This document shows, in pieces, positions 25-59,702 of a DNA stretch of 64,000 nt. The notes under the pieces were generated by a model. It had not been told where the DNA came from. It worked only from the letters and a program-made list of their open reading frames with translations, and did not search any database. The translations under genes were made by a program, and so were the position numbers. The first letter of the stretch is position 1; each line of letters begins with the position of its first letter. Where the stretch lies: NCBI RefSeq assembly GCF_028368995.1, contig NZ_JAQNDL010000003.1, positions 2,624,001 through 2,688,000 of the forward strand, in the 5' to 3' direction. This stretch comes from Nannocystis bainbridge (lineage in GTDB: Bacteria > Myxococcota_A > Polyangia > Nannocystales > Nannocystaceae).

Positions 25-672
25 ATGCGCCGACTCCTCCCCCTCGCGCTGGTGACCCTGGCGACCGCCTGCACCGATCGCCCGGTCGGCGAGGACAGCG
101 ACGCCGGCTCGTCGACGACCTCCAATTCGACGACGACCTCGACCGCGACCACCGAGTCCCCGACCACCGAGGCCCCGACCACCGGCGGCACCACCGACGC
201 GCCCGACCCTTGCCTCGAGCACCGCTACGCCAGCGGCGGCTCGCACGCGTGGATGCTGACCTGCGGGCTGCCCGAGCTGTGCGGCGGCGCCGAACCGCTG
301 CTCTTCTCGACCACCACGCTCGAGCCGAGCGCTCCGGAAGAGATCGAGGTCGACGACCTCGACCGCGCGCGCTGCATGGCCGCGGCCCTGCGCGACCGCA
401 CGCCGGGGCAGATCGCCTGGTCGCAGGTCGTCGGCCCCGACGTCATCTTCAGCCCCCTCTCGCTGGAGATCGTCCAGGGCACCGCCCTGGTGCGCAACGT
501 GGACGGCCTCCAAGAGTTTGTGCTCCCCGACACCTACGAGGGCATGTACCCGCTGCGCCCGCCGGAGTTCTTCGCCGCCTGCGCCGAGGGCGACGCGCTC
601 GCCCTGTGGCAATGCCTCATGGACGCCGTCGAACCGGCGTGCCTGCCCGGCCCCATGACCTGTCCCAAGTGA
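25..672 (+). CDS. Cys-rich lipoprotein with Ser/Thr stalk
   Basis: Signal peptide and lipobox (LATAC), Thr/Ser-rich linker, Cys-rich C-terminal domain. Confidence 0.8.
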   Translation: MRRLLPLALVTLATACTDRPVGEDSDAGSSTTSNSTTTSTATTESPTTEAPTTGGTTDAPDPCLEHRYASGGSHAWMLTCGLPELCGGAEPLLFSTTTLEPSAPEEIEVDDLDRARCMAAALRDRTPGQIAWSQVVGPDVIFSPLSLEIVQGTALVRNVDGLQEFVLPDTYEGMYPLRPPEFFAACAEGDALALWQCLMDAVEPACLPGPMTCPK

Positions 673-725
673 CATGTGATTTCGGCGCCGGCGACCCGAC
701 GCACCCGAACCGGCCGCGGCTTGTT

Positions 726-2096
726 ATGCTCCTCGCGCCCGTGACCCGGCTCCGCTCCCTCGCCGTCTTCGTCGTCGCCTTCGCGGTGCTCGCGGTGCTC
801 GCGGGCAAGGACCTGCTGCAGCCGAGCGCCAACAATCACCACGCGCACATGGCCCAGGGCTGGCTCGAAGGTCGGCTCGCGCTCCCGGGCGAGCCGCCGG
901 GCTACCCGCGCAACTTCGACGACTGGGGCCGCGTCCACAGCCTCACCCTCAAGGACGGCACCGTCCTGCGCGGCTTCCCGTGCCGCACCCCGGCCTGCGT
1001 CGACCGGCGCCGGCGCGAGCGCATCGAGAGCTTCCGCGCCACCGACGGTCGCGTCCACGAAGTCCCGCTCGCGCAGGTCGCCGCGCGCGGCGGCACCTGG
1101 TACGTGACCTTTCCGCCAGGTCCGGCGCTGATCATGTTGCCCGGCGTCGCCCTGCTCGGCCTCGGCTTCCCCGACATCCTGCTCACCGTCGTCGTCGGCG
1201 CGCTGATCCCCGCGTTTCTGCTGCGCCTGCTCGAGCGCGTCCGCCCCGGCCGCACGCGCGAGCACCTGCTCGCCTGCGTCGCCTGGACCCTCGCCAGCCC
1301 GGCCTGCTTCGTCGCCGCCCACGGCAGCGTGTGGTTCACCGCGCAGGTCCTCGCGGCCATGTTCCTCGTGCTGCACATCGGCGCCGCGTGGGCCGCCGAG
1401 CGCCCGCTCCGCGCTGGTCTGTGGCTCGGCCTCGCCGCCGCCTGTCGCCCGCAGGTCGCGTTCGCGCTGCCGTTCTTCCTGCTCGAGTGGCGCCGCTTCG
1501 ATCGCCGGCCCGCCACGCTGCTGCGCTTCTTCGCCCCGCTGGCGCTGATCGGCGCCGCGCTGGCGCTGCTCAACTGGGCCCGCTTCGACGACATCTTCGA
1601 GTTCGGCCACCGCTACCTCGAGATCCGCTGGCAGGCGCGGATCCAGGAGCACGGGATGTTCGGCCTGCACTACCTGTGGCGCAACCTCGAGTGCATGGTC
1701 TGGCTGTGGCCGCAGATCCAGCTGTCACCGCTGCACGTGCGCTGGTCGATCCACGGCATGGGCCTCTTGATCGGCTCACCGTGGCTGCTGTGCCTGCTCG
1801 CCGCCCGCGATCCGCTGCCGCAGCGGTGGGGCCTCGTGCTCGCCGCCAGCGCCGTCGCAGTGCCCGCGCTGCTGTATCAGAACAGCGGCCAGGTCCAGTT
1901 CTCATACCGCTTCGCGCTCGATTTCCTGCCGTTCGTGCTGGTCCTGCTGGTCGCCGGCGGCGGCGCGCGCAGCCGGTGGTTCATGCCGCTCGTGCTCGCC
2001 TCGGCCGCTCTGCAGCTTTACGGCGCATGGCTGTTCCAGCGCGCCCCGGGCCGGCTGTTCGTCGCCGACCCGTGGTGGCCGTTCGCGCCGGAGTGA
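726..2096 (+). CDS. Polytopic membrane protein, probable GT-C-type glycosyltransferase
   Basis: About 10 hydrophobic segments, a soluble loop after TM1, and motifs YVTFPPGPA, GSVWFTAQV and QFSYRFALD. Start taken at ATG 726 within ORF 6..2096; the function is inferred. Confidence 0.6.
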   Translation: MLLAPVTRLRSLAVFVVAFAVLAVLAGKDLLQPSANNHHAHMAQGWLEGRLALPGEPPGYPRNFDDWGRVHSLTLKDGTVLRGFPCRTPACVDRRRRERIESFRATDGRVHEVPLAQVAARGGTWYVTFPPGPALIMLPGVALLGLGFPDILLTVVVGALIPAFLLRLLERVRPGRTREHLLACVAWTLASPACFVAAHGSVWFTAQVLAAMFLVLHIGAAWAAERPLRAGLWLGLAAACRPQVAFALPFFLLEWRRFDRRPATLLRFFAPLALIGAALALLNWARFDDIFEFGHRYLEIRWQARIQEHGMFGLHYLWRNLECMVWLWPQIQLSPLHVRWSIHGMGLLIGSPWLLCLLAARDPLPQRWGLVLAASAVAVPALLYQNSGQVQFSYRFALDFLPFVLVLLVAGGGARSRWFMPLVLASAALQLYGAWLFQRAPGRLFVADPWWPFAPE

Positions 2097-2281
2097 AGCT
2101 CGCCCGGCGCTCCGTCGCCGAACCCGCAGCTCGCCGGACCGGCTCCTGGAGACCAGCCCGGCGAACTCGAGTCACAGCACGTCTCGCGTGACTCACTGCG
2201 AAGCGACCGCCGCCTCATCGGCGAGAAGAGGCGAGGATGACCTCGAGCTGGCGCGCGGCGGAGCCAGCCGTCGCCCTCGAG

Positions 2282-4066
2282 TCAGCGCAGCTCGACCGTC
2301 GCCCCGACCGCGTGCAGCAGCTCCTGGTGCGCCATCGCGGCCTCGCGGGCGACCGCCGCCTTGATCAGCGTCGGCGCGGCCTCGACCAGGTCCTTGGCCT
2401 CCTTGAGCCCGAGCCCGGTGATGGCGCGCACCTCCTTGATCACCGAGATCTTGTTCGGCCCGCACACCTGCAGGAACAGGTCGACCTCGGCCGCCACGCC
2501 CCGCTCCGCCTCGCGCAGCTCGACGGCCGCCCCGAGCGCGACGAGCTGCTGCGCCAGCGCGCTCGCCTCGCTGCGCGGCAGCCCCGAGCGCACCACCGCG
2601 CCGGCCGTCTCCGACATGTCCTTGGACTCCTTGAGCCCGAGCCCGGTCACCTCGCGGATCAGCTTGATCACCATGATCTTCTGCGGCCCGCAGTCGTTCA
2701 GCACCACGTCGATCGGCGTCAGGTCGTCGTCCTCGTCCTCGTCCAGCGCCTGGCCGCGGATCTCCACCCGCGCGCCCGCGGCCGTCAGCGCCTCCGCGAG
2801 CCTGCGCGCCTCGTCCCCGCGCAGGCCCTCCTTGATCATGACGTCGGTCGACTCGGACAAGTCCTTGGCGTCCTTGAGCCCGAGCCCCGTAGCCTCGCGG
2901 ATCAGCTTGATCACGCTGATCTTGTTCTCGCCGTGGTGGCGCAAGATCACCCCGAAGCCGCGGCTCGGCTCGGGCAGCGCTGCCGGCGGCGGCGGGGCTG
3001 CGGCACGGAGCTCGACCTGTGCGCCCACGAGCAGCAGCGCCTGCTGGAGCACCCGCGCATCGAACTCGCCCACGCCCTGCTTGATCACCGAGTCGGCGGC
3101 CTCGGACAGGTCCTTGGCGTCCTTGAGCCCGAGCGTGGTGTGGTCGCGGATGACCTTGATGACGTTGATCTTGTTCGGCCCGTGGTGCTGCAGCACCACG
3201 TCGAAGCGCGAGCCCGACGCGAATTGCGGCGTCGCTGTCGGCGCCGCACGTGGCGCCCCGCGGACCGACACCTGCGCGCCCACGGCTGCCAGCGCCCGCT
3301 CGAGCGCCCGCGCCTCCGGCTCGTCCAGGCCTTGTCGGATCACCACGTCGATCGACTCGGACAGATCCTTGGCCTCCTTCAGCCCGAGCCCGGTGGCCTC
3401 GCGGACCAGCTTGACGACATCGATCTTGCGCGTGCCGAAGTGGTGGAGGATCACCGCGAAGCCGTCCGCAGGCGCGCTCGCCGGGGCCGCGCCGCCGGTC
3501 ACCAGGGTCGGCGTTGCGCTGCTGCCCGTCGCGCCCCACGTCACCGCCGCCGACGCTCCGCTTGTCTCGCGCTCCGCCGGCGCGCTGCCGTCGTGCCCGC
3601 GGACCTCGACGATCGCCCCGGCCTCGACCAACTCGTGGCGCAGCGCCTCTGCCTCGTCCTGGGCGAGCCGCCGCTTCAGCAGGCACGGCGCGTCGTCGAC
3701 CAGCTCGACCGCCTCGCGCAGCCCGAGGCCCATCATCATCTTCAGCGCGCGCACGACGTTGATCTTGTTGTCGCCGCGGTCGCGCAGGTACACGTCGAAG
3801 AACGCCGGCGCTGGCGCGGCGCCGTGGGTCCGCAGCTCGACCGTCGCGCCGACGGCCACCAGCTTGACGCGCAGCGCCTCGGCCAGCGCCGGGGCGATCC
3901 GCGTCCGGATCGCGCTCGGGGCCCGGGCCACCAGCTCGGCGGCCGCGGCCGCCTCGAGGCCCGTCATCGCCCGCACCGCCTCGGCCACCGCCGCCGGGTT
4001 CGCCCCGGCTTCGCGCAGGATCACGTCCTGCGGGACAAATTCGCCCGTCTGGCCTCCGCCCGTCAT
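2282..4066 (-). CDS. Protein of seven tandem ribosomal bL12 (L7/L12) C-terminal domains
   Basis: Seven units of about 67 aa matching F-D-V-x-L...K-I-x-V-I-K-x-I-R-x-x-T-G-L-G-L-K-E-A-K-D-L...G-A-x-V-E-L-R. GGAGG RBS precedes ATG 4066. No bL12 N-terminal dimerisation domain. Confidence 0.9.
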   Translation of the reverse strand: MTGGGQTGEFVPQDVILREAGANPAAVAEAVRAMTGLEAAAAAELVARAPSAIRTRIAPALAEALRVKLVAVGATVELRTHGAAPAPAFFDVYLRDRGDNKINVVRALKMMMGLGLREAVELVDDAPCLLKRRLAQDEAEALRHELVEAGAIVEVRGHDGSAPAERETSGASAAVTWGATGSSATPTLVTGGAAPASAPADGFAVILHHFGTRKIDVVKLVREATGLGLKEAKDLSESIDVVIRQGLDEPEARALERALAAVGAQVSVRGAPRAAPTATPQFASGSRFDVVLQHHGPNKINVIKVIRDHTTLGLKDAKDLSEAADSVIKQGVGEFDARVLQQALLLVGAQVELRAAAPPPPAALPEPSRGFGVILRHHGENKISVIKLIREATGLGLKDAKDLSESTDVMIKEGLRGDEARRLAEALTAAGARVEIRGQALDEDEDDDLTPIDVVLNDCGPQKIMVIKLIREVTGLGLKESKDMSETAGAVVRSGLPRSEASALAQQLVALGAAVELREAERGVAAEVDLFLQVCGPNKISVIKEVRAITGLGLKEAKDLVEAAPTLIKAAVAREAAMAHQELLHAVGATVELR

Positions 4067-4296
4067 CGCTCGACCTCCGGGGCCGACGATACCCGAATCA
4101 CCGCGGCACCGTCGCGTCCGCGGACACGGGCGTGTTCGCACCGAGCACCCCGTCGGTGGTCTCGCCCCCCACACCGCGTCCCGGGCGCGATCTCCCGCCA
4201 GCGCCGGGCCGTCCCGCTGCTGCGCTCGCCGGGTCGCTCGAGCAATCCCCCTCGCGCCTCGGCCGACTTCGCCCCGCACCCGGTCGTATCACCTCA

Positions 4297-4345
4297 GGAC
4301 ATGTCCTCAAGAACATATCCTCAAGGACATGCCCCTTCAGACATC

Positions 4346-4348
<3 letters not shown>
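4297..4348. repeat. 14-bp-period GGACATGTCC array (4 units)
   Basis: CATG/CATA/CATG/CATC cores at 4300, 4314, 4328 and 4342. Confidence 0.85.
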
Positions 4349-5824
<1,476 letters not shown>

Positions 5825-5845
5825 CCAGGCCACTGTAGCGCGAAG

Positions 5846-5883
5846 CACTGAAATGTCAGTGCTGCATCACTGAGATTTAAGTG
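5846..5883. promoter_or_regulatory. Two tandem palindromic activator-binding sites (candidate UAS)
   Basis: CACTGA-aatg-TCAGTG (5846-5861) and CACTGA-gatt-TAAGTG (5868-5883) start 22 bp apart, between the activator and the ferredoxin. Confidence 0.65.
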
Positions 5884-5971: not shown

Positions 5972-5999
5972 CAGGGCTGCCCCAGGAGACAGATTTTTC

Positions 6000-8054: not shown

Positions 8055-8591
8055 ATGCGCAAAGCATCGATCATCACCGCTTCTCTCCTCGCGCTCGTCG
8101 GCACGCTCGCCGTCGCCGCCCCGCCGATGTTCAAGGCCGCCACCACCTTCAACGACGACGGCCTCACCTTGACCGTCGCGGGCAGCCTGTCGGGCCTCCC
8201 GAGCGGCGACCTCGAGTTCAAGCTGTCGGCCACCGGCACCGAGACCGTGGTGTGCGGCGTCCCGGGCGTCGTCGACCCGCCGCCGGCCGAGGTGGTGCTG
8301 GCCGGCTCCAAGGTGGTGACGGTCCCGGCGAACGGAGGCGTGGGCGGCACGTTCGCCGACCTCGCGTCCCTGGCCCCGGCGGCCCCGGCGTGCCCGCAGG
8401 CCGACGGCGAGGCGATCGCGGCCCAGCACGACATCGCGTTCACCAAGGCGTCGATCGAGATCCGCCCGGTCCAGCTCGACCCGGCGCTGCCCCCCGCGAA
8501 GACCGTGCGGTGCATCCAGTGCACCTTCAAGGCCCCCACGATCGACGGCCCGGCCAAGCCGCAGCAGTGCTTGACCCTGTCCGCGTGCTGA
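8055..8591 (+). CDS. Secreted Cys-containing hypothetical protein
   Basis: GAGG RBS, signal peptide MRKASIITASLLALVGTLAVA, coding-like codon bias. Confidence 0.75.
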   Translation: MRKASIITASLLALVGTLAVAAPPMFKAATTFNDDGLTLTVAGSLSGLPSGDLEFKLSATGTETVVCGVPGVVDPPPAEVVLAGSKVVTVPANGGVGGTFADLASLAPAAPACPQADGEAIAAQHDIAFTKASIEIRPVQLDPALPPAKTVRCIQCTFKAPTIDGPAKPQQCLTLSAC

Positions 8592-8613: not shown

Positions 8614-8651
8614 GGACATGTTTTACGAGACATGTCCGATCGCGCACGCTG
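8614..8651. repeat. 14-bp-period GACATG array (2-3 units)
   Basis: Cores at 8617, 8631 and 8645 (CACG variant). Confidence 0.7.
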
Positions 8652-8740: not shown

Positions 8741-8820
8741 CGACATGTCTCTCGAGACATGCCCAATCGCGCATGCCCTTCAGGACATGCCCGTCAGAGC
8801 ATGTCCGTCGGGCCATCTGC
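8741..8820. repeat. 14-bp-period GACATG array (6 units)
   Basis: Cores at 8744, 8758, 8772, 8786, 8800 and 8814, between convergent genes. Confidence 0.9.
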
Positions 8821-8823: not shown

Positions 8824-10194
<1,371 letters not shown>

Positions 10195-10427
10195 GGAGAG
10201 GTTCTCAGCGGCCCGCTGAGGGCCATGTCTTCGCCCGGGCGGTGCGATGCGACCGCGAGTCCAGGCCCGGAGGCCGATATGCTCGGCTCGCCAGACTCGC
10301 GGGGGTCGGCGCCAATCAAGGCGCAGGCCGAGGCGCAGGCGACCTCGCGCCGCGGACGAAAGACGCGCGGACGGGTACCATGCCTCGGCGGCCGACGCAA
10401 CGACGCGGCCAGACGGTCGCGTCGAGC

Positions 10428-10892
10428 TCAGCGACGCTCGGTGGCGATGTTGACCACGATCGAGGAGCCCTTGAGGTCGGCGCCGTTCAGCGCCTCGATG
10501 ACCCGGGGGGCGTCCTTGCGATTGCCCATGGTGACAAAGCCGAACCCGCGCGAAGCGCCGGTCTCTCGCTCGGTCATGACGACCGCGTCGGCGACCGGGC
10601 CGTAGTTGGCGAATGCATTGCGGAGGTCGCTCGCGGTGGTGCTGCTGCTCAAGCTGCCGACGAACAGGCGCACCGGGATCGTCGCGGCCGAGCGCTCCTG
10701 GCCCGGATTCTCGATCGCCCGCATCGCATCCTCGATCGAGGGGAGCGAGCCCGTGAGGTCCTCGGCGGTAGCGACAGGGATCTCCCGCGGACCGCGCTCG
10801 CGGCGGGCCTCGCGGGCCTGCGCCTTCTCTTGCTGCTTCTTGGCTTTATTGGCCTCGCGGGATCGCTTCCCGGAAGAGTAGTAGTTGCTCAC
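10428..10892 (-). CDS. RRM RNA-binding protein with basic N-terminal extension
   Basis: RNP2 LFVGSL and RNP1 RGFGFVTM; GGAG RBS before GTG 10892. Confidence 0.9.
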   Translation of the reverse strand: MSNYYSSGKRSREANKAKKQQEKAQAREARRERGPREIPVATAEDLTGSLPSIEDAMRAIENPGQERSAATIPVRLFVGSLSSSTTASDLRNAFANYGPVADAVVMTERETGASRGFGFVTMGNRKDAPRVIEALNGADLKGSSIVVNIATERR

Positions 10893-11794: not shown

Positions 11795-12086
11795 GGCGGG
11801 CGAGCTTAGCGCTCGCCCTCCGCCGCGCCCGCACCCGCCCGCAGCGCCGCGACGGACGCGAAGATTCGCCGCCCTCGCCCCGCCGCCGAGGTCTGACTCA
11901 CACGCCGCGGCGCTCGCGTCGCAGGGCCGCGCGGCGCCTCGCCATCAACCTGTCTCTTCAGACATCTCACCGCCTCGCTGCGGTCGTCGGCTCGTTCGTC
12001 GTCAGCGACGGCTGTGCGGAGCGCGCGCTTGCGGCTCGCGACGGCCCTCGGCTATGCCTCGCGCTCCCCGACAGGAAGGTCCCCCC

Positions 12087-15381: not shown

Positions 15382-15570
15382 GCACATGTCCGATGGGACA
15401 TGTCATCGCGGCTCTCCACGCGCGATGACGCCTGTCCTCGGGGACATGCCATTCGCCGGCGAGCCCAGGCACCCCGGCCCGACGGGCCATGTCATCGCGG
15501 CTCTCCAAGTTCGATGACGCCGATCCTCGGGGACATGTCACTCGCCAGCGATCCCCGGCGCCCCGGCCGA
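15382..15570. repeat. 89-bp tandem duplication carrying GACATG units and a hairpin
   Basis: CATGTCATCGCGGCTCTCCA at 15399 and 15488; GGGGACATG cores at 15445 and 15534. Confidence 0.85.
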
Positions 15571-16208: not shown

Positions 16209-17162
16209 ATGACCGCAACGACCTCCCATCCCTTCGAGACTGCCGGCGACCGCGAGCTGGTGATCACCCGCGTGTACGCAGCCCCGCGCGAGCTGGTGTT
16301 CAAGACCTGGACCGAGCCCCAGCACGTCGTGCGCTGGTGGGGCCCGCGCGGCTGCACCACCACGATCCAGGAGATGGACGTGCGCCCCGGCGGCGTGTGG
16401 CGCTACGTGATGCGCACGGCCGACGGCACCGACTGGACCAACCGGATCCGCTACCGCGAGGTCGTCGTGCCCGAGCGCCTCGTCTACGACCACGGCTCCG
16501 ACGTCGAAGACGACCCGAACGGATTCCACGTGATCACCGAGTTCCACGACCGCGGCCAGCAGACCGAGGTCGTGATGCGCATGCAGTTCGCCTCGGTCGA
16601 GGCGCGCGACCGGGCCGCCGGGTACGCCGGCGCCAATTCGACGTTCGACCGCCTGCACGAGCTGCTGGACGACCTCGCGGTCGAGTTCGTCGTGCGCCGC
16701 GAATTCGCGGCCCCGCGCGAGCTGGTCTACCGCGCCTTCACCGAGGCCGACCGGCTGGCGCGCTGGTGGGGCCCGAAGGGCTTCACGATGCAGACGCGCC
16801 GCCACGACCCCCGCCCCGGGGGGATCTACCACTACTCGATGCGCGCCGCCGACGGCCACGAGATGTGGGGCAAGATGAAGTACGTGGAGCTGACTCCGCC
16901 CGAGCGCCTGGTGTTCGTCAATTCGTTCGCCGACGGCGAGGGCAACATCATCGCGCCGCCGTTCGCCGACGACTGGCCGCAGGAGATCTTGCACACGATC
17001 ACGCTGACGGAACAGGACGGCAAGACGCTCGTGACGCTCCGCGGCCTGCCGATCCACGCGACGCCAGCCCAGCGCGCGACGTTCCTCGCGGGCCACGCTT
17101 CAATGCAAGGCGGCTACGGGTCGAGCCTCGACCAGCTCACCGAGCTGCTCGCGACCGAGTGA
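16209..17162 (+). CDS. Tandem SRPBCC (AHSA1-like) domain protein
   Basis: Two copies of AAPRELV...RWWGP...RPGG...PERLV; GGAG RBS. Confidence 0.9.
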   Translation: MTATTSHPFETAGDRELVITRVYAAPRELVFKTWTEPQHVVRWWGPRGCTTTIQEMDVRPGGVWRYVMRTADGTDWTNRIRYREVVVPERLVYDHGSDVEDDPNGFHVITEFHDRGQQTEVVMRMQFASVEARDRAAGYAGANSTFDRLHELLDDLAVEFVVRREFAAPRELVYRAFTEADRLARWWGPKGFTMQTRRHDPRPGGIYHYSMRAADGHEMWGKMKYVELTPPERLVFVNSFADGEGNIIAPPFADDWPQEILHTITLTEQDGKTLVTLRGLPIHATPAQRATFLAGHASMQGGYGSSLDQLTELLATE

Positions 17163-17171: not shown

Positions 17172-17284
17172 TTGTAAGGACATGTTTTGAAAGACATGTC
17201 CTTACAATCATATTACCGGAATTGCGCCGGATGATAGCCTGAAGACCGACATGTCCCTTGGAGCATGTTCATGAGAGCACCCTC
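17172..17284. repeat. 14-bp-period GACATG arrays, including a 36-bp near-perfect palindrome
   Basis: TTGTAAGGACATGTTTTGAAAGACATGTCCTTACAA; cores at 17181, 17195, 17209 and at 17250, 17264. Confidence 0.85.
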
Positions 17285-17303: not shown

Positions 17304-20165
<2,862 letters not shown>

Positions 20166-23501: not shown

Positions 23502-23546
23502 CGAGATGTCCCTTCGGACATTTTACATGGCCTTCAGGACATCTCG
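23502..23546. repeat. GACAT motif pairs at 14-bp spacing
   Basis: Cores at 23505/23519 and 23526/23540. Confidence 0.65.
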
Positions 23547-24954: not shown

Positions 24955-25222
24955 GTGGGTATCGTGGCCGTCTCGCGCGCGCTCGCCGTTCGTCACGAAC
25001 GGCCGGCGAGATCGACGGGCCACCTTAGCCCGCTTCGCGGCCAACGATCTCTCGGGTTCGCAAGCTTCGCGGCGACGAGGCGGGGGCATCTCCCTGGGCG
25101 ATGCCCTGCCCGCGACGAGGCGAGTGACTTTGCCAACTGCACGGCGCGCACCGCTCGCTGCATGGACCCAGCGAGCGATGTCCTGGAGCGCAGCCGCGGC
25201 TGCGAGTCACATGTCCCTCGGG

Positions 25223-26407
25223 TCAGGTGAGGCGGAGCGAGCCGGTCGGCGAGCGAGCCCCGGGCGGCACGCTGGCGACGCGGTCCGAGTAGCGGCGTTG
25301 CGGACGCAGCGCCACCAGCACCCGCGCATCGGGCGACGGCGTGTCCTGCCCCGGCGCGAGCACCCCGAGCTGCTGCAAAGCCTCGCGCTGGATCAGCACC
25401 TGCGTCGGCGGCGAGCCAGGCGGCGTGTCGCTGGCGAACACGGCCTGCGCCGGGGTCCAGACCGCACGGAAGTGCGGCGCGCGGCCCTGGACCACGGCGA
25501 CGATGCCGGGCTGAGCCGACGCGTCGGGCTCGCCGACCACCGGCGCGTAGCCCTGCGTGTCGCGGACGATCGTCACCTGGTCGGTGTCGGCCTCGTAGTG
25601 CGGGCCGCCGTCGAACGGGTCGACGCGGCCGCTGTACTGGAAGCCGATGCTCTCGAGCAGCCGCTTGGCTCCGACAGTGTTGGGGCCGACCTGACCGACG
25701 ATGTCCTGCACGCCCTCGGGCAGCAAGCACGCGTGGATCGGCATGGTCGGGAACAGCCGCCAGATGAACTCTTTGTTGAAGCGGCTCAGGCGGTCGGCCT
25801 CGTGATAGGTGAGGCCGGTGAACTTGTGGCCGAGCGCGTCCCACAGCGGCGAGCGCGTGGTGCCACCTGGCCCTTGGACCAGGGGCGGCAGCAGCTCGGC
25901 GAGCAGGCGATCGCGGAACCACCCGCGGTGGCTCGAGATGAACACGAAGCGCGCCAGCGACAGCAGGCGGCCGAGCTTCTCCGGGTGGTGGCGCAGCTCG
26001 GGGCGCAGCACCAGGCCGCCGAGCTCGGTCGGACCGTCGTAGGTCTGGCCGAGGTACAGCATCGTGTGCGTCATGTGGACGTCGTGCACCTCGGAGTTCG
26101 GGGTGACGCGGAGGTCGGCGTAGCGCTCCTCGTGCATGACGCGGAAGAACACGTGCGGCTCGTCGGTGTCGCCGTGCTGGGCGTGGATCATCGAAGTGCC
26201 GACGACCTGGCCGTCGTCGCCCTCGAGCACGAACAGGAAGCGGCGGGTCGGGTCGAAGTCGGGGCTGCCGCGGAACGAGGCCAACGAGCGCTGGAGGAGC
26301 TCGTGGATGTAGGGCCGCTCGGGCGGCAGATTGAGGCTGTTGAGGTGGCGCGCGAGCTCGAAGATCGCGTCTTCGTCGCTCATTGCTGCCTCGCGGAACA
26401 GGAACAT
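25223..26407 (-). CDS. astA: Arginine N-succinyltransferase
   Basis: SLNLP, FLFVLE, GPTELGGLVL, GRLLSLARF, SPLWDALG, EAD and VDPFDGGP motifs. Confidence 0.85.
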   Translation of the reverse strand: MFLFREAAMSDEDAIFELARHLNSLNLPPERPYIHELLQRSLASFRGSPDFDPTRRFLFVLEGDDGQVVGTSMIHAQHGDTDEPHVFFRVMHEERYADLRVTPNSEVHDVHMTHTMLYLGQTYDGPTELGGLVLRPELRHHPEKLGRLLSLARFVFISSHRGWFRDRLLAELLPPLVQGPGGTTRSPLWDALGHKFTGLTYHEADRLSRFNKEFIWRLFPTMPIHACLLPEGVQDIVGQVGPNTVGAKRLLESIGFQYSGRVDPFDGGPHYEADTDQVTIVRDTQGYAPVVGEPDASAQPGIVAVVQGRAPHFRAVWTPAQAVFASDTPPGSPPTQVLIQREALQQLGVLAPGQDTPSPDARVLVALRPQRRYSDRVASVPPGARSPTGSLRLT

Positions 26408-30162: not shown

Positions 30163-30466
30163 GCTCGCGCGATCCGCCGAATCATCACACCACACATTCC
30201 CTCGCCGCGCGCGCTCCCCACCGGGCGCGCGCGCCGCCAGAATGCAACGGCAGACACCCGCCGACGCGGTCAGCAACTGCATTTGCGCCGCGCCCGCCGC
30301 GTTCACGCTCGCGTCCGCGGAGGGCTCGCCGCTGCCACTCGATCGCACCCTCGTCGCCGACCTCGACTTCGAATGTTCATAGCAGTCGCGAACGCAGATT
30401 CGAGGACGGCCTGATTCACAGCACCCGAGCTTCTCTCTATAAAGGGAGTCACCAAGGGGGTTGGGA

Positions 30467-32866
<2,400 letters not shown>

Positions 32867-32872: not shown

Positions 32873-32896
32873 AGCCCGGCGCGTGTCCGCCGGGCT
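32873..32896. terminator. Hairpin between convergent genes
   Basis: AGCCCGGCG-cgtgtc-CGCCGGGCT; no U-tract. Confidence 0.35.
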
Positions 32897-32919
32897 GTCC
32901 TGCGGGACACCTCTGATTC

Positions 32920-32949
32920 GCCCGACATGTCTCAAGCGACATGTCGGGC
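32920..32949. repeat. GACATGTC pair at 14-bp spacing (palindrome)
   Basis: GCCCGACATGTC-tcaagc-GACATGTCGGGC. Confidence 0.85.
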
Positions 32950-36203: not shown

Positions 36204-36989
36204 GTGCTGACGATCGCGTCCTGGAACGTCAACGGCCTGCGCGCCCTGGCCCGCAAGCAAGCCCTGTCCCCCTGGCTCGCCAGCGGGCCGACGATCGTCG
36301 GCCTGCAGGAGGTCCGCGCCAGCGCCGACCAGCTCGGCGAGCTGGCCCAGCCCGACGGCTGGCCTTTCGCACATGTCTCTCCAGCCAGGCGCGCGGGCTA
36401 CAGCGGCGTCGCCCTGTTCAGCAAGCTCGCGCCCGACAGCGTCGAGACCGCGCTCGGCCCCAAGTTCGACGTCGAGGGCCGCCTGCAATTGGCGCGCTTC
36501 GGCAAGCTGGTGGTCGCCAACGTGTACTTCCCCAACGGCAACGGCCAGGACCGCAGCAACGACCGCGTGCCGTACAAGCTGTCGTTCTACCGGGCGCTGC
36601 GCAAGCGGCTCGACGCGCTGCGGGCCGAGGGGCTGCGGGTGCTGGTGATGGGCGACTTCAACACGGCCCATCAGGAGATCGATCTGGCCCGCCCGCGCGA
36701 CAATCTGGGCACCAGCGGGTTCCTGCCGGAGGAGCGCGCCGAGCTCGGCCGCTGGCTCAAGCGCGGCTATCACGACACCTTCCGCAAGTTCGAGGCCGGG
36801 CCGGGCCACTATTCGTGGTGGTGTCAGCGCGGCGGCTGCCGCGAGCGCAACGTCGGCTGGCGCATCGACTACGTGCTCGCGTGCGCCGAGGCGCTGCCGT
36901 TCGTCAAAGCGGCGGCGATTCACCCGAGCGTGCTCGGCTCGGATCATTGCCCCGTCAGCGTCACCGTCGATCCCGACATCGTCCGTTGA
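36204..36989 (+). CDS. xth: Exodeoxyribonuclease III (AP endonuclease)
   Basis: SWNVNG, LQE, GYSGVA, YFPNG, GDFN, GWRIDY and GSDHCP motifs. Confidence 0.95.
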   Translation: MLTIASWNVNGLRALARKQALSPWLASGPTIVGLQEVRASADQLGELAQPDGWPFAHVSPARRAGYSGVALFSKLAPDSVETALGPKFDVEGRLQLARFGKLVVANVYFPNGNGQDRSNDRVPYKLSFYRALRKRLDALRAEGLRVLVMGDFNTAHQEIDLARPRDNLGTSGFLPEERAELGRWLKRGYHDTFRKFEAGPGHYSWWCQRGGCRERNVGWRIDYVLACAEALPFVKAAAIHPSVLGSDHCPVSVTVDPDIVR

Positions 36990-37158
36990 CGCGCGACGCT
37001 GGGGGCGCGGGCCCAGCAGCGGCAGCACAGCCTCGCTGTGGACCCGGTGGCGCGCGCGATGGTTTCGCCGCCTGCACGGTCTAGCCTGCCGCTGCGGTGC
37101 CCCGGGCGGCGCCAGAATGCCGCTGACAACCGCGGCGACGCGAAGTATGGTGCCGCCC

Positions 37159-39072
37159 ATGCTTCGTCCACGCGTCGCCGCGTTCCTGGTCCTCCCGTTG
37201 CTCCCCGTGATCGCCTGTCAGGGCGGCGCCGAACAACAACAGCCGGCGGCGCAGAAGGGCAAGCCGGCGCGGGTCGTCGACAGGAAGGGCGACGGCAAGG
37301 CCGAGACCAAGCTCGAGGGCAAGGAGGTCGAGAAGGCCCCGGGCCAGGCCGCCGAGGCCAGGGCGTTCGTCGAGCGCGTCGACGGCGAGCTGCGCGCGCT
37401 CGCGGTCGCCTCGAGCAAGGCCGAGTGGGACAAGAACACCAACATCACCGACGCCACCGAGAAGGCCGCGGCCGACGCCAACGAGAAGTTGATGGAGTTC
37501 ATGGCCAGGACCATCAAGGAAGCCACGACCTTCACCGGCGGCGACATCGACCCCGAGACGGCGCGCAAGCTGCACCTGCTCAAGGTCACCGCCAGCCCGC
37601 CGCCGGCCCCCGGCGACCCCGACAAGCGCAAGCGGCTGGCCGAGCTCGGCGCCAAGATGGAGGGCATCTACGGCAAGGGCAAGGCGTGCGAGGGCGCGAA
37701 GTGCAAGGACCTCGGCGCGCTCGAGGACATCATCGGCACCAGCCGCAAGTACGACGAGCTGCTCAAGGCGTGGACCGGCTGGCACAAGATCGCCGTCGAG
37801 CTGCGGCCGCTGTATCAGGAGTTCGTCGGCCTCGCCAACGAGGGCGCCAAGGAGATCGGCTACAAGGACCTCGGCGAGCTGTGGCGCGCCGGCTACGACA
37901 TGAGCCCGGCCGACTTCGAGCAGGAGACCGAGCGGCTGTGGACGCAGGTCCAGCCGCTCTACGACAAGCTGCACTGCTACGTGCGCGGCAAGCTGGCCGA
38001 CAAGTACGGCAAGGACAAGGTCCCGGCCGAGGGCCTGATCCCGGCGCACCTGCTCGGCAACATGTGGGCGCAGGAGTGGGCCAACATCTATCCGCTGGTC
38101 GAGCCGTTCCCCGGGGCCGCCAGCCTCGACGTCACCGGCGCGCTGAAGAAGGCCAAGTACGACGAGGTCAAGCTGGTCAAGCTCGGCGAGTCGTTCTTCA
38201 CCTCGGTCGGCCTCGACCCGCTGCCGGCGACCTTCTGGGAGCGCTCGATGCTGCAGAAGCCGAAGGACCGCGAGGTCGTGTGCCACGCGAGCGCCTGGGA
38301 CGTCGACTTCAACGACGACCTGCGGATCAAGATGTGCATCAAGATCAACCAGGAGGACCTGGTCACGGTCCACCACGAGCTCGGGCACAACTATTATTAT
38401 CACTACTATTACAAGCTGCCGCTGCTGTTCCAGAACGGCGCCCACGACGGCTTCCACGAGGCGATCGGCGACGCGATCGCGCTGTCGATCACGCCGGCCT
38501 ACCTCAAGCAGATCGGCCTCATCGACGCGGTCCCGGCCGACGACAAGGGCCTCATCAACCTGCAGATGCAGGACGCGCTCGAGAAGATCGCGTTCCTGCC
38601 GTTCGGCAAGCTGATCGATCAATGGCGCTGGGACGTGTTCTCCGGCAAGACCGCGCCGGAGCAGTACAACGAGGCCTGGTGGGCGCTGCGCGCCAAGTAC
38701 CAGGGCATCGCCCCGCCGGAGGGCCGCCCGGACCCCGAGTTCTTCGACGCCGGCGCGAAGTACCACATCCCGGCCAACGTGCCGTACACCCGCTATTTCC
38801 TGGCGCGGATCCTCCAGTTCCAGTTCCACAAGGCGCTGTGCGAGGCCGCCGGTCACACCGGGCCGCTGCACGAGTGCTCGATCTACGGCAAGACCGCCGC
38901 CGGCGACAAGCTCAAGGCGATGCTCGCCCTCGGCTCGTCCAAGCCGTGGCCCGAGGCGATGGCCGCCCTCACTGGCACCAAGCAGATGGACGCCGGGGCG
39001 ATGATCGAGTACTTCGCGCCGCTCGAGAAGTGGCTCGACGAGCAGAATCAGGGCAAGAAGTGCGGCTGGTGA
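37159..39072 (+). CDS. M2-family peptidyl-dipeptidase (ACE-like), lipoprotein
   Basis: PAHLLGNMWAQ, CHASAWD, HHELGH, GFHEAIG and KYHIP motifs; lipobox VIAC. Confidence 0.95.
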   Translation: MLRPRVAAFLVLPLLPVIACQGGAEQQQPAAQKGKPARVVDRKGDGKAETKLEGKEVEKAPGQAAEARAFVERVDGELRALAVASSKAEWDKNTNITDATEKAAADANEKLMEFMARTIKEATTFTGGDIDPETARKLHLLKVTASPPPAPGDPDKRKRLAELGAKMEGIYGKGKACEGAKCKDLGALEDIIGTSRKYDELLKAWTGWHKIAVELRPLYQEFVGLANEGAKEIGYKDLGELWRAGYDMSPADFEQETERLWTQVQPLYDKLHCYVRGKLADKYGKDKVPAEGLIPAHLLGNMWAQEWANIYPLVEPFPGAASLDVTGALKKAKYDEVKLVKLGESFFTSVGLDPLPATFWERSMLQKPKDREVVCHASAWDVDFNDDLRIKMCIKINQEDLVTVHHELGHNYYYHYYYKLPLLFQNGAHDGFHEAIGDAIALSITPAYLKQIGLIDAVPADDKGLINLQMQDALEKIAFLPFGKLIDQWRWDVFSGKTAPEQYNEAWWALRAKYQGIAPPEGRPDPEFFDAGAKYHIPANVPYTRYFLARILQFQFHKALCEAAGHTGPLHECSIYGKTAAGDKLKAMLALGSSKPWPEAMAALTGTKQMDAGAMIEYFAPLEKWLDEQNQGKKCGW

Positions 39073-42411: not shown

Positions 42412-42570
42412 AGGCATGTCCCCGAGGACAGGTCGACGCCACGCCGAGGTCGAGCCCGCTGGACCCGCGCCACAGGTGCGGTGGTGCATGTCCCGAGGGA
42501 CAGGCGAGCCGACGCGACTGACATGTCCCGAGGGACATACTCGATCAAGATGTCTCGAAGGACAGATCGC
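42412..42570. repeat. Four GACAT/GACAG motif pairs at 14-bp spacing
   Basis: Cores at 42415/42429, 42487/42501, 42522/42536 and 42549/42563. Confidence 0.75.
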
Positions 42571-43912: not shown

Positions 43913-43936
43913 GGACATGTCCTTCGGGACATCTTG
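43913..43936. repeat. GGACATGTCC pair
   Basis: GGACATGTCC-ttcg-GGACATCTTG. Confidence 0.7.
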
Positions 43937-45920: not shown

Positions 45921-45984
45921 TGCTGTCCCCAGGGACATTGCCGCCAGGACATGCTGTTTCGGGCATGTCCTCGGGGACATGCCC
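45919..45984. repeat. 14-bp-period GGACATG array (5 units)
   Basis: Cores at 45922, 45936, 45950, 45964 and 45978. Confidence 0.85.
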
Positions 45985-46876
45985 CGAGGTGTGGGTGATC
46001 GACGCGACGGCGCTGCTGTTCCGCGCCTACTACGGGATGCCGGCCAGGCTGTCGCCGGCGGGCGAGCACGTCGGCGCGGTGCTGGGGCTCGGGCACCTGC
46101 TGCGCGGGCTGCTGCGGCGGGCGCCGGAGCGGGTGGTGCTGGTGTTCGACGCCGGGCGCATGACGTTTCGCAACCGCATCGACCCGCGCTACAAGGCCAA
46201 CCGTGGCGAGCCGCCGCCCGACCTGGCGCCGCAGTTCGAGCTGGCGCGGCGGCTCGGCGCGGCGGCCGGGTTCGTGGCGCTGAGCGTGCCCGACTTCGAG
46301 GCCGACGACCTGATGGCGACGCTGGCCCGCGGGGCGGCGGCGGCCGGCCTGCGCACGCGGCTGCTGAGCGTCGACAAGGACCTGTGCCAGCTCGTATGCG
46401 ACGAGTCGCCCGGGGTGGTGCTCGAGGACCCGCGCACGCAGGCGGTCTGCGACGCGGCCGGGGTGCAGCAGCGCATGGGCGTGCGGCCGTCGCAGGTGGT
46501 CGACTACATGGCGCTGGTCGGCGACACCAGCGACAACGTGCCCGGGGTCGCAGGCGTGGGGCCCAAGGCGGCCCAGGCCCTCATCGCCGCGTTCGGCGAC
46601 CTCGATTCGCTGTACGCCTCGCTCGGGCAGGTCGCCACGCTGCCGCTGCGCGGGGCCAAGGGGCTCTCGGCCAGGCTCGAGGCCGGGCGCGAGGCGGCCT
46701 TCCTCGCGCGCACGCTGGTGCGGCTCCACGACGCGGTCCCGCTCGGCGCGCTCGACCTACACGCGCACACGCGCTGGCGCGGGCCAGGCGAGGACGCGGA
46801 GGAATTCTTCGCCGCGCTCGGCAGCCCGGGCGCGCTCCGCGGGTTCAGGTCGATCGCGGCGCAGGATCGTGCGTGA
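45920..46876 (+). CDS. Stand-alone 5'-3' exonuclease/flap endonuclease (Pol I N-terminal-like)
   Basis: VID..LLFRAYY, VFD, YKANR, EADD, DKD and GDTSDNVPGVAGVGPK. Start is 45920, 45965 or 45989. Confidence 0.9.
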   Translation: MLSPGTLPPGHAVSGMSSGTCPEVWVIDATALLFRAYYGMPARLSPAGEHVGAVLGLGHLLRGLLRRAPERVVLVFDAGRMTFRNRIDPRYKANRGEPPPDLAPQFELARRLGAAAGFVALSVPDFEADDLMATLARGAAAAGLRTRLLSVDKDLCQLVCDESPGVVLEDPRTQAVCDAAGVQQRMGVRPSQVVDYMALVGDTSDNVPGVAGVGPKAAQALIAAFGDLDSLYASLGQVATLPLRGAKGLSARLEAGREAAFLARTLVRLHDAVPLGALDLHAHTRWRGPGEDAEEFFAALGSPGALRGFRSIAAQDRA

Positions 46877-48946: not shown

Positions 48947-49789
48947 ATGACCCAAATCGACGAGATCACGGCACGCGCCGCCGCCGCCGTGGCCACCGCG
49001 GACGCGCTCCTGATCTGCGCAGGCGCCGGCATGGGCGTCGATTCCGGGTTGCCCGACTTTCGCGGGCCCGAGGGCTTCTGGCGCGCGTATCCGGCGGCCC
49101 GCGAGCTCGGGCTCCAGTTCCACGACCTCGCCGACCCGCGGTGGTTCACCCGCGATCCGGCCCTCGCCTGGGGCTTCTACGGCCACCGCCTGAACCTGTA
49201 TCGCGCGACAGCGCCGCACGCCGGCTTCGCGCTGCTCCGGCGCTGGGCCGCGCGCACGCCCGCGGGGGCGTTCGTCTACACGTCGAACGTGGACGGGCAG
49301 TTCCAGCGCGCGGGCTTCTCCGAGGCGCAGGTCGAAGAGTGCCACGGATCGATCTTGCACCTGCAATGTCTGCAGGGCTGCGACCTGCCGCCCTGGCCCG
49401 TCCCGCAGGCGGCCGTGTCGGTCGATGTCGCGACGCTGCGCGCCGCCCCTCCGTTCTTCACGTGCCCGCGCTGCGCCGGGCTGGCCCGCCCCAACATCAT
49501 GATGTTCAGCGATTTCGCGTGGGACTCGACCCGCGCGAACGAGCAGCGCGAACGCTCGCGCGCGTGGCTGCAGGCGCAGGAGCAGGCGGGCGCGCGCGTG
49601 GCGGTGATCTGCCTCGGCTCGGGCACCGCGATCCAGACGGTGCGCCTGACGGCCGAACGCGCGGCCCGTCGCCCCGGCAATACGCTGATCCGCATCAACC
49701 CCCGCGACCCATGGGTGCCGAGCGGCCAGCTCTCGCTGGCCACGGGGGCGCTCGCAGGCCTGACGGCGATCGACGCAGCGCTGGGCTGA
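48947..49789 (+). CDS. Sirtuin (Sir2) NAD-dependent deacylase
   Basis: GAGMGVDSGLPDFRG, SNVDG, ECHGS, Zn-binding cysteines, RPNI and RINP. Confidence 0.92.
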   Translation: MTQIDEITARAAAAVATADALLICAGAGMGVDSGLPDFRGPEGFWRAYPAARELGLQFHDLADPRWFTRDPALAWGFYGHRLNLYRATAPHAGFALLRRWAARTPAGAFVYTSNVDGQFQRAGFSEAQVEECHGSILHLQCLQGCDLPPWPVPQAAVSVDVATLRAAPPFFTCPRCAGLARPNIMMFSDFAWDSTRANEQRERSRAWLQAQEQAGARVAVICLGSGTAIQTVRLTAERAARRPGNTLIRINPRDPWVPSGQLSLATGALAGLTAIDAALG

Positions 49790-49824: not shown

Positions 49825-49950
49825 CGACATGTCTCTCGAGACATGTGACGTGCATCGGCGCCTGCGATCACGGGGTGCTGTGAATGATGTCACCGCGGCG
49901 CGGAGCCGGGCCTGCGCAGTCCCAGCATTCATGTCCTTTCAGACATGTGT
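49825..49950. repeat. Two GACATG pairs at 14-bp spacing
   Basis: Cores at 49828/49842 and 49930/49944; the second pair lies in the 3' end of the UDG gene. Confidence 0.75.
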
Positions 49951-51500: not shown

Positions 51501-54278
<2,778 letters not shown>

Positions 54279-54294
54279 CAGCTACCTCGAAGAA

Positions 54295-57021
<2,727 letters not shown>

Positions 57022-57025
57022 ATCC

Positions 57026-58000: not shown

Positions 58001-58204
58001 CGTTCTCTCCTCCGCGAAAAGAAAACCGCTTATCTTCGATCCTATCCGTCGCTGCCGGCGGCGTGAAGGCTCGGGGGCTGGGCGAGAACGCGCGTGCGTG
58101 ATTCACGGGCTTTTGCGGCTGCCTGGGGGGTTTGGGGTCGGCTCACGTCGAGACGTGGCGCGCCGCGGGTCGCTCCTTCTATGATGGGGGGGACCTCTGC
58201 TGCG

Positions 58205-59641
58205 ATGACGACCCGCGACGACCCCGCGCGACGAGAAGGACGCTCCGCAAGTGTGGTGTCGTCGCGTGACAACGGTTCGCGTTGGACGCTGGTGATCGTC
58301 GGCCTCGCCTTGCTCGTGGGAGTCGCGACCACGGCGGCGGACGAACATCGTTTGACCGTCGTCGTGATCGGCGCGCTCCTCCTCGGGGGGCACCTCGCGG
58401 CGACGGTGTACCTGGGGCATGGCGAGGTTTCACGGGTTCGCATCGGGGCGTCGCTCTGGACAGTGATCGTCGGCGCCCTGGCGATCGCCGCGCCGAGCGT
58501 CGCTGGCGCGTCGACGCCGTTTTGGTGTTTGCTGCTCCCAGTGGTCGTCGTCTCCGTGCACGCCACCAGCGCCGCTACGGGGATCACCGCCACCGCGCTC
58601 GGGGCGGCCGCGGGTGCGGGCCTCTTCATCGCGGGCGCAGGATCGATCGCGTGGTTGGCGGCCGCCGCGATCGCCGGGGTCGGTCTGCTCGCGGCTGCCG
58701 AGCAGCGCCGCGGTCAGGTGCGGGACGACGACCTCCGGCGCCGCGAGGGCGAGCTCGCCGGCGTGCGGGCCGAGTTGCGAGATCTCCGGAGCCAGCACGT
58801 CGCCGGCGCCGAGGGGCGGCTCGTCGCCTTGACCCGCGCCAACCAGGCCCTGCAGTCCGAGGTCGAGCGCGGGCGGCGGGTCCTCGAGGAGGCGCTCGAC
58901 GCCAGTCGGACCAAGACCTCCTTCCTCCTCAAGATCAGCCACGAGCTGCGCACCCCGCTCAACGCGATCGTCGGTTACACCGAGCTGCTGCTCGAGCACC
59001 CGGAGGAGGCCGAGGCGGCCGAGCTCAAGGCCGACCTCACGCGGATCCTCGGGGCCGCGCACGAGCTGCTGGCGCTGATCGACAGCGTGCTCGACCTGGC
59101 CCGGCTCGAGGCCGGCAAGTTCGAGCTGCACATCGAAGAGTTCCCGCTGCTCGACCTGGTCCACGAGTGCGTCGCCGCCGTCACGCCGCTGGCCGAGCGC
59201 GGGCGCAACAAGCTCAAGCTCAAGCTCTCGCGCGAGCTCGGCACCATCCGCAGCGACCGCACGCGCCTGCGGCAGGTGCTCATGCAGCTCATGGGCAACG
59301 CCTGCAAGTTCACCCACGGCGGCCTCGTCGAGCTGCGCGTCGAGCCGATGGTCACCATGACCGGCCCGGTCTACCTCCTCAGCGTGCGCGACAACGGCGT
59401 CGGCATCGAGCCGGGCTACATGCCGCGGATCTTCACCCCGTTCTCGCAGGCCGACGACTCGCCGACCCGCCGCTTCGGCGGCCTCGGCGTCGGCCTCGCG
59501 CTGTGCCGCCACTACTGCACTTTGCTCGGCGGCGACATCACCGTCGAGAGCGAGCTCGGCAAGGGCTCGGTGTTCCGCGTGCAGGTGCCGGCGTTCGTCC
59601 GCGACCCGCGCGACGCCAGCGTCCTCGTCTCGGCCTTCTGA
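58205..59641 (+). CDS. Membrane sensor histidine kinase
   Basis: SHELRTPLN, GNACKF, DNGVGI, F.PFSQAD and GLGVGL; N-terminal TM segments. Confidence 0.92.
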   Translation: MTTRDDPARREGRSASVVSSRDNGSRWTLVIVGLALLVGVATTAADEHRLTVVVIGALLLGGHLAATVYLGHGEVSRVRIGASLWTVIVGALAIAAPSVAGASTPFWCLLLPVVVVSVHATSAATGITATALGAAAGAGLFIAGAGSIAWLAAAAIAGVGLLAAAEQRRGQVRDDDLRRREGELAGVRAELRDLRSQHVAGAEGRLVALTRANQALQSEVERGRRVLEEALDASRTKTSFLLKISHELRTPLNAIVGYTELLLEHPEEAEAAELKADLTRILGAAHELLALIDSVLDLARLEAGKFELHIEEFPLLDLVHECVAAVTPLAERGRNKLKLKLSRELGTIRSDRTRLRQVLMQLMGNACKFTHGGLVELRVEPMVTMTGPVYLLSVRDNGVGIEPGYMPRIFTPFSQADDSPTRRFGGLGVGLALCRHYCTLLGGDITVESELGKGSVFRVQVPAFVRDPRDASVLVSAF

Positions 59642-59664
59642 GGCCCCGTCTCACCTGCACTTCC

Positions 59665-59702
59665 GGGCATGTCCTGGGGGACATGCCCTTCGGGACATCG
59701 AC
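59665..59702. repeat. 14-bp-period GACATG array (3 units)
   Basis: Cores at 59668, 59682 and 59696, between convergent genes. Confidence 0.85.

Follow-up and report, generated by a model that had tools for sequence, protein, structure and literature searches.

A REP-like family of 14-bp palindromic arrays, apparently undescribed, at gene 3' ends in Nannocystis

What kind of element recurs on a fixed 14-bp period at many separate places in a bacterial genome, with its spacing held and the letters between its cores free to change? The question is raised by a stretch of 64,000 nucleotides (nt) from Nannocystis bainbridge (assembly GCF_028368995.1, contig NZ_JAQNDL010000003.1, positions 2,624,001 to 2,688,000), referred to below as the window, in which short palindromic repeats form dispersed arrays, mostly close to gene ends. 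A prediction made from the letters of the window had offered two kinds of answer: sites for cooperative binding by a dimeric protein, perhaps of the chromosome-organising kind, or an element related to the repetitive extragenic palindromes (REPs). Here we report that the 14-bp palindromic arrays are real and occur far above chance. The account we favour, with moderate confidence, is that they are a Nannocystis-specific family of interspersed palindromes in 3' untranslated regions, comparable to REPs and to the bacterial interspersed mosaic elements (BIMEs) built from them, with a function that we infer below.

The repeat unit and its excess over chance

The smallest element that recurs is the inverted repeat (C)ATGYCC-N4-GGRCAT(G). 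CATG is self-complementary, which lets each right arm serve at once as the beginning of the left arm in the unit that follows, and a 14-bp lattice results. Neighbouring arms that overlap at CATG thus give chains of a near-palindromic decamer, GGRCATGYCC, on a strict 14-bp period, and this sharing of arms confirms the overlap proposed in the original prediction. In the window and related loci the consensus is this decamer with four free nt as spacer; the decamer RRACATGYCC first proposed, with its 4-nt spacers, is real, and GGRCATGYCC describes it better. Within the unit, conservation is 85-97% for each of C4, A5, T6 and G7 and about 72-82% for the outer G/C pairs, with R at position 3 and Y at position 8. 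There are also lone copies of the inverted repeat whose outer halves do not fit the decamer.

Several counts place these elements far above chance. ACATGTC has 40 matches in the window, against 3.77 +/- 2.03 in 100 shuffles, none of which reaches 40. ATGTC-N6-GACAT, a scan suggested together with the prediction, gives 10 matches in the window where 0.04 are expected. The likewise suggested histogram of distances between CATG sites (224 in the window) has its peak at 14 nt, with 15 pairs; there are 5 pairs at 28, and all other distances from 4 to 80 hold 0-5. When the decamer GGACATGTCC is searched with up to three mismatches, the 338 window hits form 35 pairs at a distance of 14, 10 at 28 and 6 at 42, and off the period only 2 at 13 and 3 at 15. 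In 77 fetched loci (see below) the corresponding decamer pairs number 162 at 14, 86 at 28, 46 at 42 and 20 at 56, with 1 at 13 and 0 at 15. The spacer within the inverted repeat is fixed at four: TGYCC-Nk-GGRCA occurs 13 times in the window with k = 4, once with k = 11 and never with any other k from 0 to 14, and in the locus flanks N4 is found 24 times, N3 once and N5 not at all.

A weight matrix built from the related loci finds 46 bridging units in the window, compared with 3.85 in 20 block shuffles, and the same approach applied to decamers finds 33 compared with 4.5; the bridging palindrome, the inverted repeat that joins two decamers, had been singled out as the best-conserved unit, and these counts uphold that choice. 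Exact bridge (RL) pairs without a tandem neighbour number 45 and exact lone decamers 26 (3 and 5 in a shuffle), in a sample whose locus part was selected by a pattern that itself contains the bridge. Lone decamers with one mismatch show no enrichment (73, against 95.5 in shuffles). Arrays of two units number 43, with 2.7 in shuffles, and those of three or more units 98, with 0.1. From two to eight units the array counts are 43, 41, 27, 18, 8, 3 and 1, a roughly geometric fall-off. Exact units have a density of 13 in the 64-kb window (about 1 per 5 kb) and of 24 in 285 kb of locus flanks (about 1 per 12 kb), which extrapolates to roughly a thousand or more units per genome.

Range among genomes and placement at gene ends

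The pattern ATGYCCNNNNGGACATGYCCNNNNGGRCAT was scanned against 185,579 species genomes, with a chance expectation of about 0.5 matches if equal base frequencies are assumed. The scan returned at least 77 loci, and 72 of the 77 among the matches listed are titled Nannocystis: N. pusilla, N. exedens, N. punicea, N. radixulma, strain RBIL2 and several metagenome-assembled genomes (MAGs). The others among the matches listed come from one Nannocystaceae MAG, two myxobacterial MAGs, one alphaproteobacterial MAG and one Nocardiopsis. We set the last two aside as unrelated to the family. Both L037 (the alphaproteobacterial MAG, 1997-2048) and L056 (Nocardiopsis, 1983-2034) hold a lone 14-bp tandem repeat with the core GGGCATGTCC and identical spacers (cgcg and gggc, respectively), no second array is present in the 4 kb fetched, and they are probably unrelated microsatellites.

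In N. pusilla the matches listed run from 1.7 to 11.4 Mb of the contig, and in N. punicea from 2.2 to 12.6 Mb of the chromosome. On the latter, which is complete at 13.2 Mb, those listed fall at 2.2, 3.9 and 9.9-12.6 Mb, leaving the stretch between 3.9 and 9.9 Mb without a listed match; in N. pusilla none of the matches listed falls between 5.8 and 8.9 Mb. Such empty stretches may mean depletion in one chromosome half, and we draw no conclusion from them. At the sequence level the window is 89% identical to N. pusilla over 2.1 kb and 84% identical to a Nannocystis MAG over 1.8 kb.

Placement was analysed in 139 arrays of at least two units, taken from the window and 75 loci. Genes were called heuristically from third-position G+C, and in the window the calls were corrected with Pfam-supported genes. 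Arrays lie in convergent gaps in 57 cases, between co-directional (tandem) genes in 44 and between divergent genes in none; the remainder are inside called genes (16), overlap called gene ends (6) or stand at locus edges (16). An apparent divergent placement of four window arrays was ruled out, as they follow the stops of two small genes. A distance to a stop codon could be defined for 101 arrays; the median is 11 nt, and 61 of them begin no more than 13 nt away and 71 no more than 25 nt. Of the 44 arrays in tandem gaps, 37 are closer to the stop than to the next start (medians 18 versus 234.5 nt, p = 5e-6). The gap between two convergent stops is often wholly occupied by an array, and some arrays extend into the last codons or provide the stop codon. 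The tendency of most clusters to follow stop codons or to sit between convergent genes, as stated in the original prediction, holds. Given this position right after stop codons, the arrays should be transcribed as 3' untranslated RNA. The genes beside arrays in the locus flanks are unrelated housekeeping genes.

The sites in the window are as follows.

656..679: single unit TGACCTGTCC-CAAG-TGACATGTGA, overlapping the TGA stop of a plus-strand gene that ends at 672.
4297..4348: array of three good units and one degenerate unit, just past the stop of the sigma-54 activator gene (4346-5848, minus strand), with the next minus-strand gene about 230 nt downstream of it; RNA fold z of -5.6.
8614..8646: two decamers in a hairpin with an 8-bp stem, 22 nt past the stop of a plus-strand gene that ends at 8591.
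8741..8820: six-unit array; the DEAD-box helicase gene (8824-10194, minus strand) has its stop 3 nt away.
11949..11966: single unit CCTGTCT-CTTC-AGACATC (unit 11951-11964) in a divergent gap; the only window unit in a promoter region.
15382..15540: units 15382-15405, 15428-15451 and 15485-15540, the first beginning 10 nt past a stop at 15371; embedded in an 89-bp tandem duplication (15390-15567, 85% identity).
17178..17201: two decamers in a hairpin with a 16-bp stem, in a convergent gap, 15 nt past a stop at 17162.
17247..17279: two to three units; the kinase gene (17304-20165, minus strand) has its stop about 25-33 nt away.
23502..23546: two bridging units with an offset of 21 nt, past the stop of a minus-strand gene that ends at 23632.
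25207..25225: single unit CATGTCC-CTCG-GGTCA, which shares bases with the stop codon (25223-25225) of an AstA-like minus-strand gene.
32896..32946: bridging unit 32896-32909 and two decamers 32923-32946, in a convergent gap, 30-57 nt past a stop at 32866.
42412..42569: four bridging units (42412-42435, 42484-42507, 42519-42542 and 42546-42569), downstream of the stop of the DUF7793 gene (42600, minus strand).
43913..43936: two-unit array, 207 nt past the stop of the DUF4442 gene (43706) and about 150 nt before the next plus-strand gene.
45924..45984: array of four or five units that fills a 68-nt gap between co-directional genes, with the GTG start of a 5'-3' exonuclease gene 5 nt further on; includes a perfect hairpin with a 10-bp stem, GGGCATGTCC-TCGG-GGACATGCCC (45961-45984).
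49825..49848: two-unit array, 36 nt past a stop at 49789, in a convergent gap.
49927..49950: two-unit array, overlapping the stop (49929-49931) of a UDG-family minus-strand gene.
59665..59702: three-unit array with a perfect 10-bp-stem hairpin (59665-59688), filling the 62-nt gap between convergent stops at 59641 and 59704; the only window site that fits the genome-scan pattern.

Every core position in the original prediction is seen in the sequence, and the sites it gave are real; it missed 32896-32909 and 15485-15540.

The window has a G+C content of 72%, and its proteins are a myxobacterial set, with Ser/Thr kinases linked to TPR domains, a sigma-54 activator and a DUF4215 repeat protein. 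Some neighbours of the arrays are of interest in their own right. Directly downstream of the sigma-54 activator gene, an open reading frame (ORF) at 2285-4288 (minus strand, about 600-670 aa) carries seven ribosomal protein L7/L12 C-terminal domains (Pfam E = 5.7e-138), an unusual multi-domain use of L12. The DEAD-box RNA helicase gene, which has the window's longest array hard against its stop, precedes a gene for a small RRM_1 protein (8827-10892, minus strand). The DUF4215 cysteine-rich repeat protein (30443-32863) has many internal repeats and cross-matches an N. pusilla gene (L003, 2430-3120) at 67-78% identity. Finally, the gap at 45924-45989 looks operon-internal, and its last spacer supplies GAGG, a possible ribosome-binding site of the exonuclease gene; the array hairpins there might also affect translation of the downstream gene.

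Turnover of the arrays and competing accounts

Orthologous arrays were compared in eight locus pairs that are 91-97% identical. Three of these share loci, so the pairs are not independent, and the sample is small and in part ascertained. Of 120 spacer positions, 58 differ (48%); of 234 core positions that the search pattern does not cover, 51 differ (22%), with C4 differing at 0 of 25. In the same pairs third codon positions differ at 10% and a loosely defined non-coding class at 13%. There are no gaps in unit positions, and in the alignments coding sequence that is almost unchanged borders arrays with largely rewritten spacers. The conserved spacing with free spacers that had been described for the window, where N4 is the only spacing that recurs, thus also holds between orthologous arrays of different species.

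Whole arrays come and go as well. N. pusilla (L053) has retained the six-unit array of 8741-8820 in place, with changed spacers and some changed core letters, and the 8614-8646 array is not alignable at that locus. An array follows the M2 peptidase gene of a Nannocystis MAG, and the window has none at that gene end. The window gene itself (36649-39069) encodes a full-length Peptidase_M2 of the angiotensin-converting-enzyme type (E = 1e-229), and the MAG gene is 84% identical to it.

Arrays grow when slippage adds whole 14-bp units. Of 198 pairs of neighbouring spacers, 22 (11%) are identical, compared with 0.8% of random pairs, and 14 of 96 arrays are affected; beyond the identical pairs, adjacent spacers are no more alike than random ones. 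This excess indicates that slippage of whole units builds arrays, after which spacers drift while cores and spacing are held. Motif units can also be copied within larger duplications, since units lie inside the 89-bp duplication at 15390-15567. That duplication carries two motif units and an unrelated second hairpin (CATCGCG...CGCGATG).

We propose the following account of the family. Slippage adds whole 14-bp units, the 4-nt spacers change freely, and core letters and spacing persist. The arrays take the first nt after stop codons, often the whole of a convergent gap, and promoter gaps are avoided. In 3' untranslated RNA they would fold into stable stem-loops, and these would most likely serve as 3'-end barriers that stabilise mRNA or that stop or attenuate read-through. 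A core kept as sequence and not as pairing, together with the absolute spacing, would point to a trans-acting factor that reads the motif, either a RAYT-type propagating enzyme (RAYT, REP-associated tyrosine transposase) or a host nucleic-acid-binding protein. The REP-like alternative of the original prediction fits what was found: the palindromes are extragenic, lie at 3' ends, are genus-specific as far as the matches listed show and clustered, and are present or absent at orthologous sites. RNA folds of eight array stretches have z scores from -2.6 to -5.6, on either strand.

Several observations weigh against this account. In the bridging register there is no covariation: Watson-Crick pairs observed and expected, out of 185, are 119/116.9, 110/109.9, 84/79.1, 176/176.1 and 164/162.9. 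Within the decamer register they are slightly below expectation. At the single pair that the search pattern does not constrain, TA occurs in 32 cases, CA in 30, CG in 25 and TG in 24, an odds ratio of 1.1 over 111 cases; a smaller unascertained set of 74 pairs showed an association (odds ratio 7.3, p = 0.01) on which we do not rely. With covariation absent in both registers, RNA pairing alone does not explain the conservation. The conservation at the level of sequence and the absolute spacing lead us to infer a factor that reads sequence.

When arrays are oriented by their upstream gene, asymmetry is found only at positions 3 and 8, where G3 occurs 102 times and the equivalent C8 62 times (chi-square p = 5e-4, counted by units), and all other positions are symmetric on both strands. 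In 50 oriented arrays, the R3/Y8 combination T.G occurs 57 times versus 24 for C.A, a significant bias when unit pairs are counted. Counted by arrays, the bias is weak (22 versus 12, p = 0.12; in the strictest set 22 versus 9, p = 0.03). There are two possibilities for this observation: a sense-strand bias is compatible with mRNA hairpins that tolerate U.G pairs, and transcription-linked mutation bias fits equally well. Nor is a U-tract typical after arrays, T-runs being rare and most of 89 oriented arrays having none.

Placement and kinship add further points on this side. Occupancy over all junctions (arrays at 44 of 57 convergent, 31 of 120 tandem and 0 of 29 divergent junctions) is biased, as the locus sample was picked for carrying arrays; in the window alone, by a strict criterion, the figures are 3 of 9, 5 of 24 and 0 of 9. 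The 16 of 139 arrays inside called genes exceed the 2.7 chance arrays expected, and gene-calling errors may account for part of them. REPs typically carry a tag, GTAG/GTGG or CGTC, where the palindrome begins, and in 278 array flanks GTAG was found 0 times, GTGG 4 times and CGTC 10 times. No RAYT or other transposase family was found among 96 flank proteins (100-340 aa) or 42 window ORFs, a weak negative that samples about 0.37 Mb of several genomes of 11-13 Mb.

The rival that survives best places the function at the level of DNA. Each ATGYCC-N4-GGRCAT would bind one dimer of a dedicated protein, with neighbours 14 bp apart, and the arrays would mark 3' ends as roadblock terminators or as topological or nucleoid anchors, in the manner of the E. 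coli BIMEs that bind gyrase and IHF. It is compatible with the account given above, and taken as the explanation we consider it possible and on balance unlikely. The absolute N4 spacing, the orthologues without indels, the core letters that are kept while spacers drift and the lack of pairing covariation all agree with it, as does a motif composition that is strand-symmetric apart from R3/Y8. Arrays fill convergent gaps, where positive supercoils would meet. However, the R3/Y8 asymmetry relative to transcription is not expected of a symmetric DNA site, and apparent restriction to one genus with presence or absence between close species fits a spreading repeat better than an essential host system. 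In addition, a 14-bp step would rotate successive dimers by about 120 degrees, so that cooperative contacts are not obviously favoured, and no candidate protein was found. The original prediction had preferred protein binding to simple slippage. The lack of covariation agrees with a sequence-reading factor and is no proof of one, and the exclusion of slippage is wrong in part, as slippage contributes to the arrays.

A bolder version, which we regard as rather doubtful, would have a putative dedicated protein read GGRCATGYCC at its 14-bp step in DNA or nascent RNA and either stop or insulate transcription or handle supercoiling between packed genes. The arrays would then form a genus-wide, sequence-coded 3'-end system and not a passive selfish repeat. 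Such a reader would predict absolute spacing, conservation at the level of sequence across species and placement 0-13 nt past stop codons.

Could the arrays instead be ordinary terminators, either U-less or "I-shaped" hairpins, that arose separately behind each gene? Their 3'-end position and stable folds on both strands suit this idea, as does a window without an excess of canonical terminators: a scan of 40 of the 64 kb gave 5 against 4.2 expected and 2 against 5.6, none of them an array. Independent evolution, however, would not yield one shared stem sequence, compensatory change is absent, and neither the apparent restriction to one genus nor the presence or absence of an array at the same gene end between species is in keeping with it. 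We therefore judge this origin improbable.

Plain slippage at each locus, producing functionless microsatellite-like repeats without a common origin, is more improbable still and is largely refuted. The identical adjacent spacers, the roughly geometric array lengths and the lone same-core 14-bp repeats in L037 and L056 are what it would produce; against it, the same core and spacing occur at more than 100 separate loci with unrelated spacers, lone inverted-repeat units are enriched (45 versus 3, and 46 versus 3.85), conserved cores stand beside spacers that have diverged by 48%, and placement is tied to stop codons.

The sites known as matS, SlmA-SBS and Noc-NBS number tens per chromosome, are single palindromes confined to or excluded from macrodomains, and are not tied to gene ends. 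The least probable of the explanations, that the arrays are chromosome-organising sites of this kind, as the original prediction had suggested, or the operators of a transcription-factor regulon, has in its favour a palindrome with half-sites one helical turn apart and is rejected on density and placement: one unit per 5-12 kb, or about a thousand or more per genome by extrapolation, instead of tens; ties to stop codons, with 29 of 29 divergent promoter gaps free of arrays; and matches listed that are spread along chromosomes of 11-13 Mb beside unrelated housekeeping genes.

Myxobacterial genomes are among the largest bacterial ones, and transcript ends in myxobacteria are poorly known. The arrays put one short sequence at a large share of gene 3' ends throughout a genus, in a window that has no excess of canonical terminators. 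Should they be terminators, RNA stabilisers or landing pads for a protein, they would open a simple way into gene-end biology and operon engineering in Nannocystis, which makes natural products. Should they be a REP-like replicator, they would extend that class to a new phylum, with a much smaller unit and a lattice of overlapping arms. As repeats of variable number they are also markers that strain typing could use directly. The absolute spacing, the free spacers and the absent covariation together make a clean, testable signature of the putative factor.

Comparison with known repeat families

The motif had not been recognised as a described one, and our searches agree. No match to Rfam 15 at the gathering score was found on either strand of the 64-kb window. 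By titles and the starts of abstracts, which leave subscription journals and closed supplements uncovered, the literature holds no bacterial description of the motif and none of such repeats in Nannocystis or other myxobacteria; PMC3372372 names Sorangium only as a large genome. GGRCATGYCC fits the p53 response-element half-site RRRCWWGYYY letter for letter. We take this as coincidence, given a bacterial genome and a fixed 4-nt spacer, and no p53-like protein was seen, though no search aimed at one was made; among the papers listed, the decamer literature is eukaryotic, its top-ranked items mostly on p53.

Among bacterial systems, the met-boxes of MetJ and the centromere repeats of omega or ParR are tandem arrays that serve cooperative dimers at a few promoters or centromeres. 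The Nannocystis arrays resemble them in having a short, (near-)palindromic unit repeated head to tail at a fixed step, a layout that would suit the cooperative dimer binding put forward in the original prediction. Unlike them, they stand at a large share of gene ends and in 0 of 29 divergent promoter gaps.

Two cyanobacterial families of unsettled function offer a second comparison: STRR, short tandemly repeated heptamers that are not palindromic, and HIP1, a highly iterated octamer palindrome. Like STRR, the present repeats are dispersed arrays of a very short tandem unit, and like HIP1 they are a short palindrome far above chance in one lineage. HIP1, however, is not arrayed, is also intragenic and is not tied to stop codons, whereas the Nannocystis repeats combine palindrome, fixed period and 3'-end placement.

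The closest likeness is to REP/BIME elements of E. coli and the REPIN-RAYT system of Pseudomonas. A REP unit is about 35 bp long, and BIMEs join REPs in alternating orientation through conserved linker motifs. The Nannocystis repeats share with these families short imperfect palindromes with variable loops that are extragenic and probably transcribed, a position after stop codons and between convergent genes, apparently many copies in arrays, restriction to a lineage as far as the matches listed show, and presence or absence between relatives. Two papers describe a REPIN as two inverted REPs with a spacer between them, moved by a single-copy RAYT (PMC3337134, 10.1101/2022.05.22.493013). With tag and conserved linkers absent, and a RAYT seen nowhere in a small sample, we call the family REP-like and do not file it with the RAYT-associated REPs. 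It differs from REPs in a unit of 14-18 bp, in arms that overlap at CATG on a rigid 14-bp lattice and in arrays that mostly begin 0-13 nt past the stop codon, and from BIMEs in spacers that are free instead of conserved linkers and in a unit orientation that can be defined only through R3/Y8. Judged by its sequence features, the family would thus be an undescribed REP-like one, and what appears new in it is an unusually small unit with overlapping arms, a rigid 14-bp lattice and a placement hard against stop codons.

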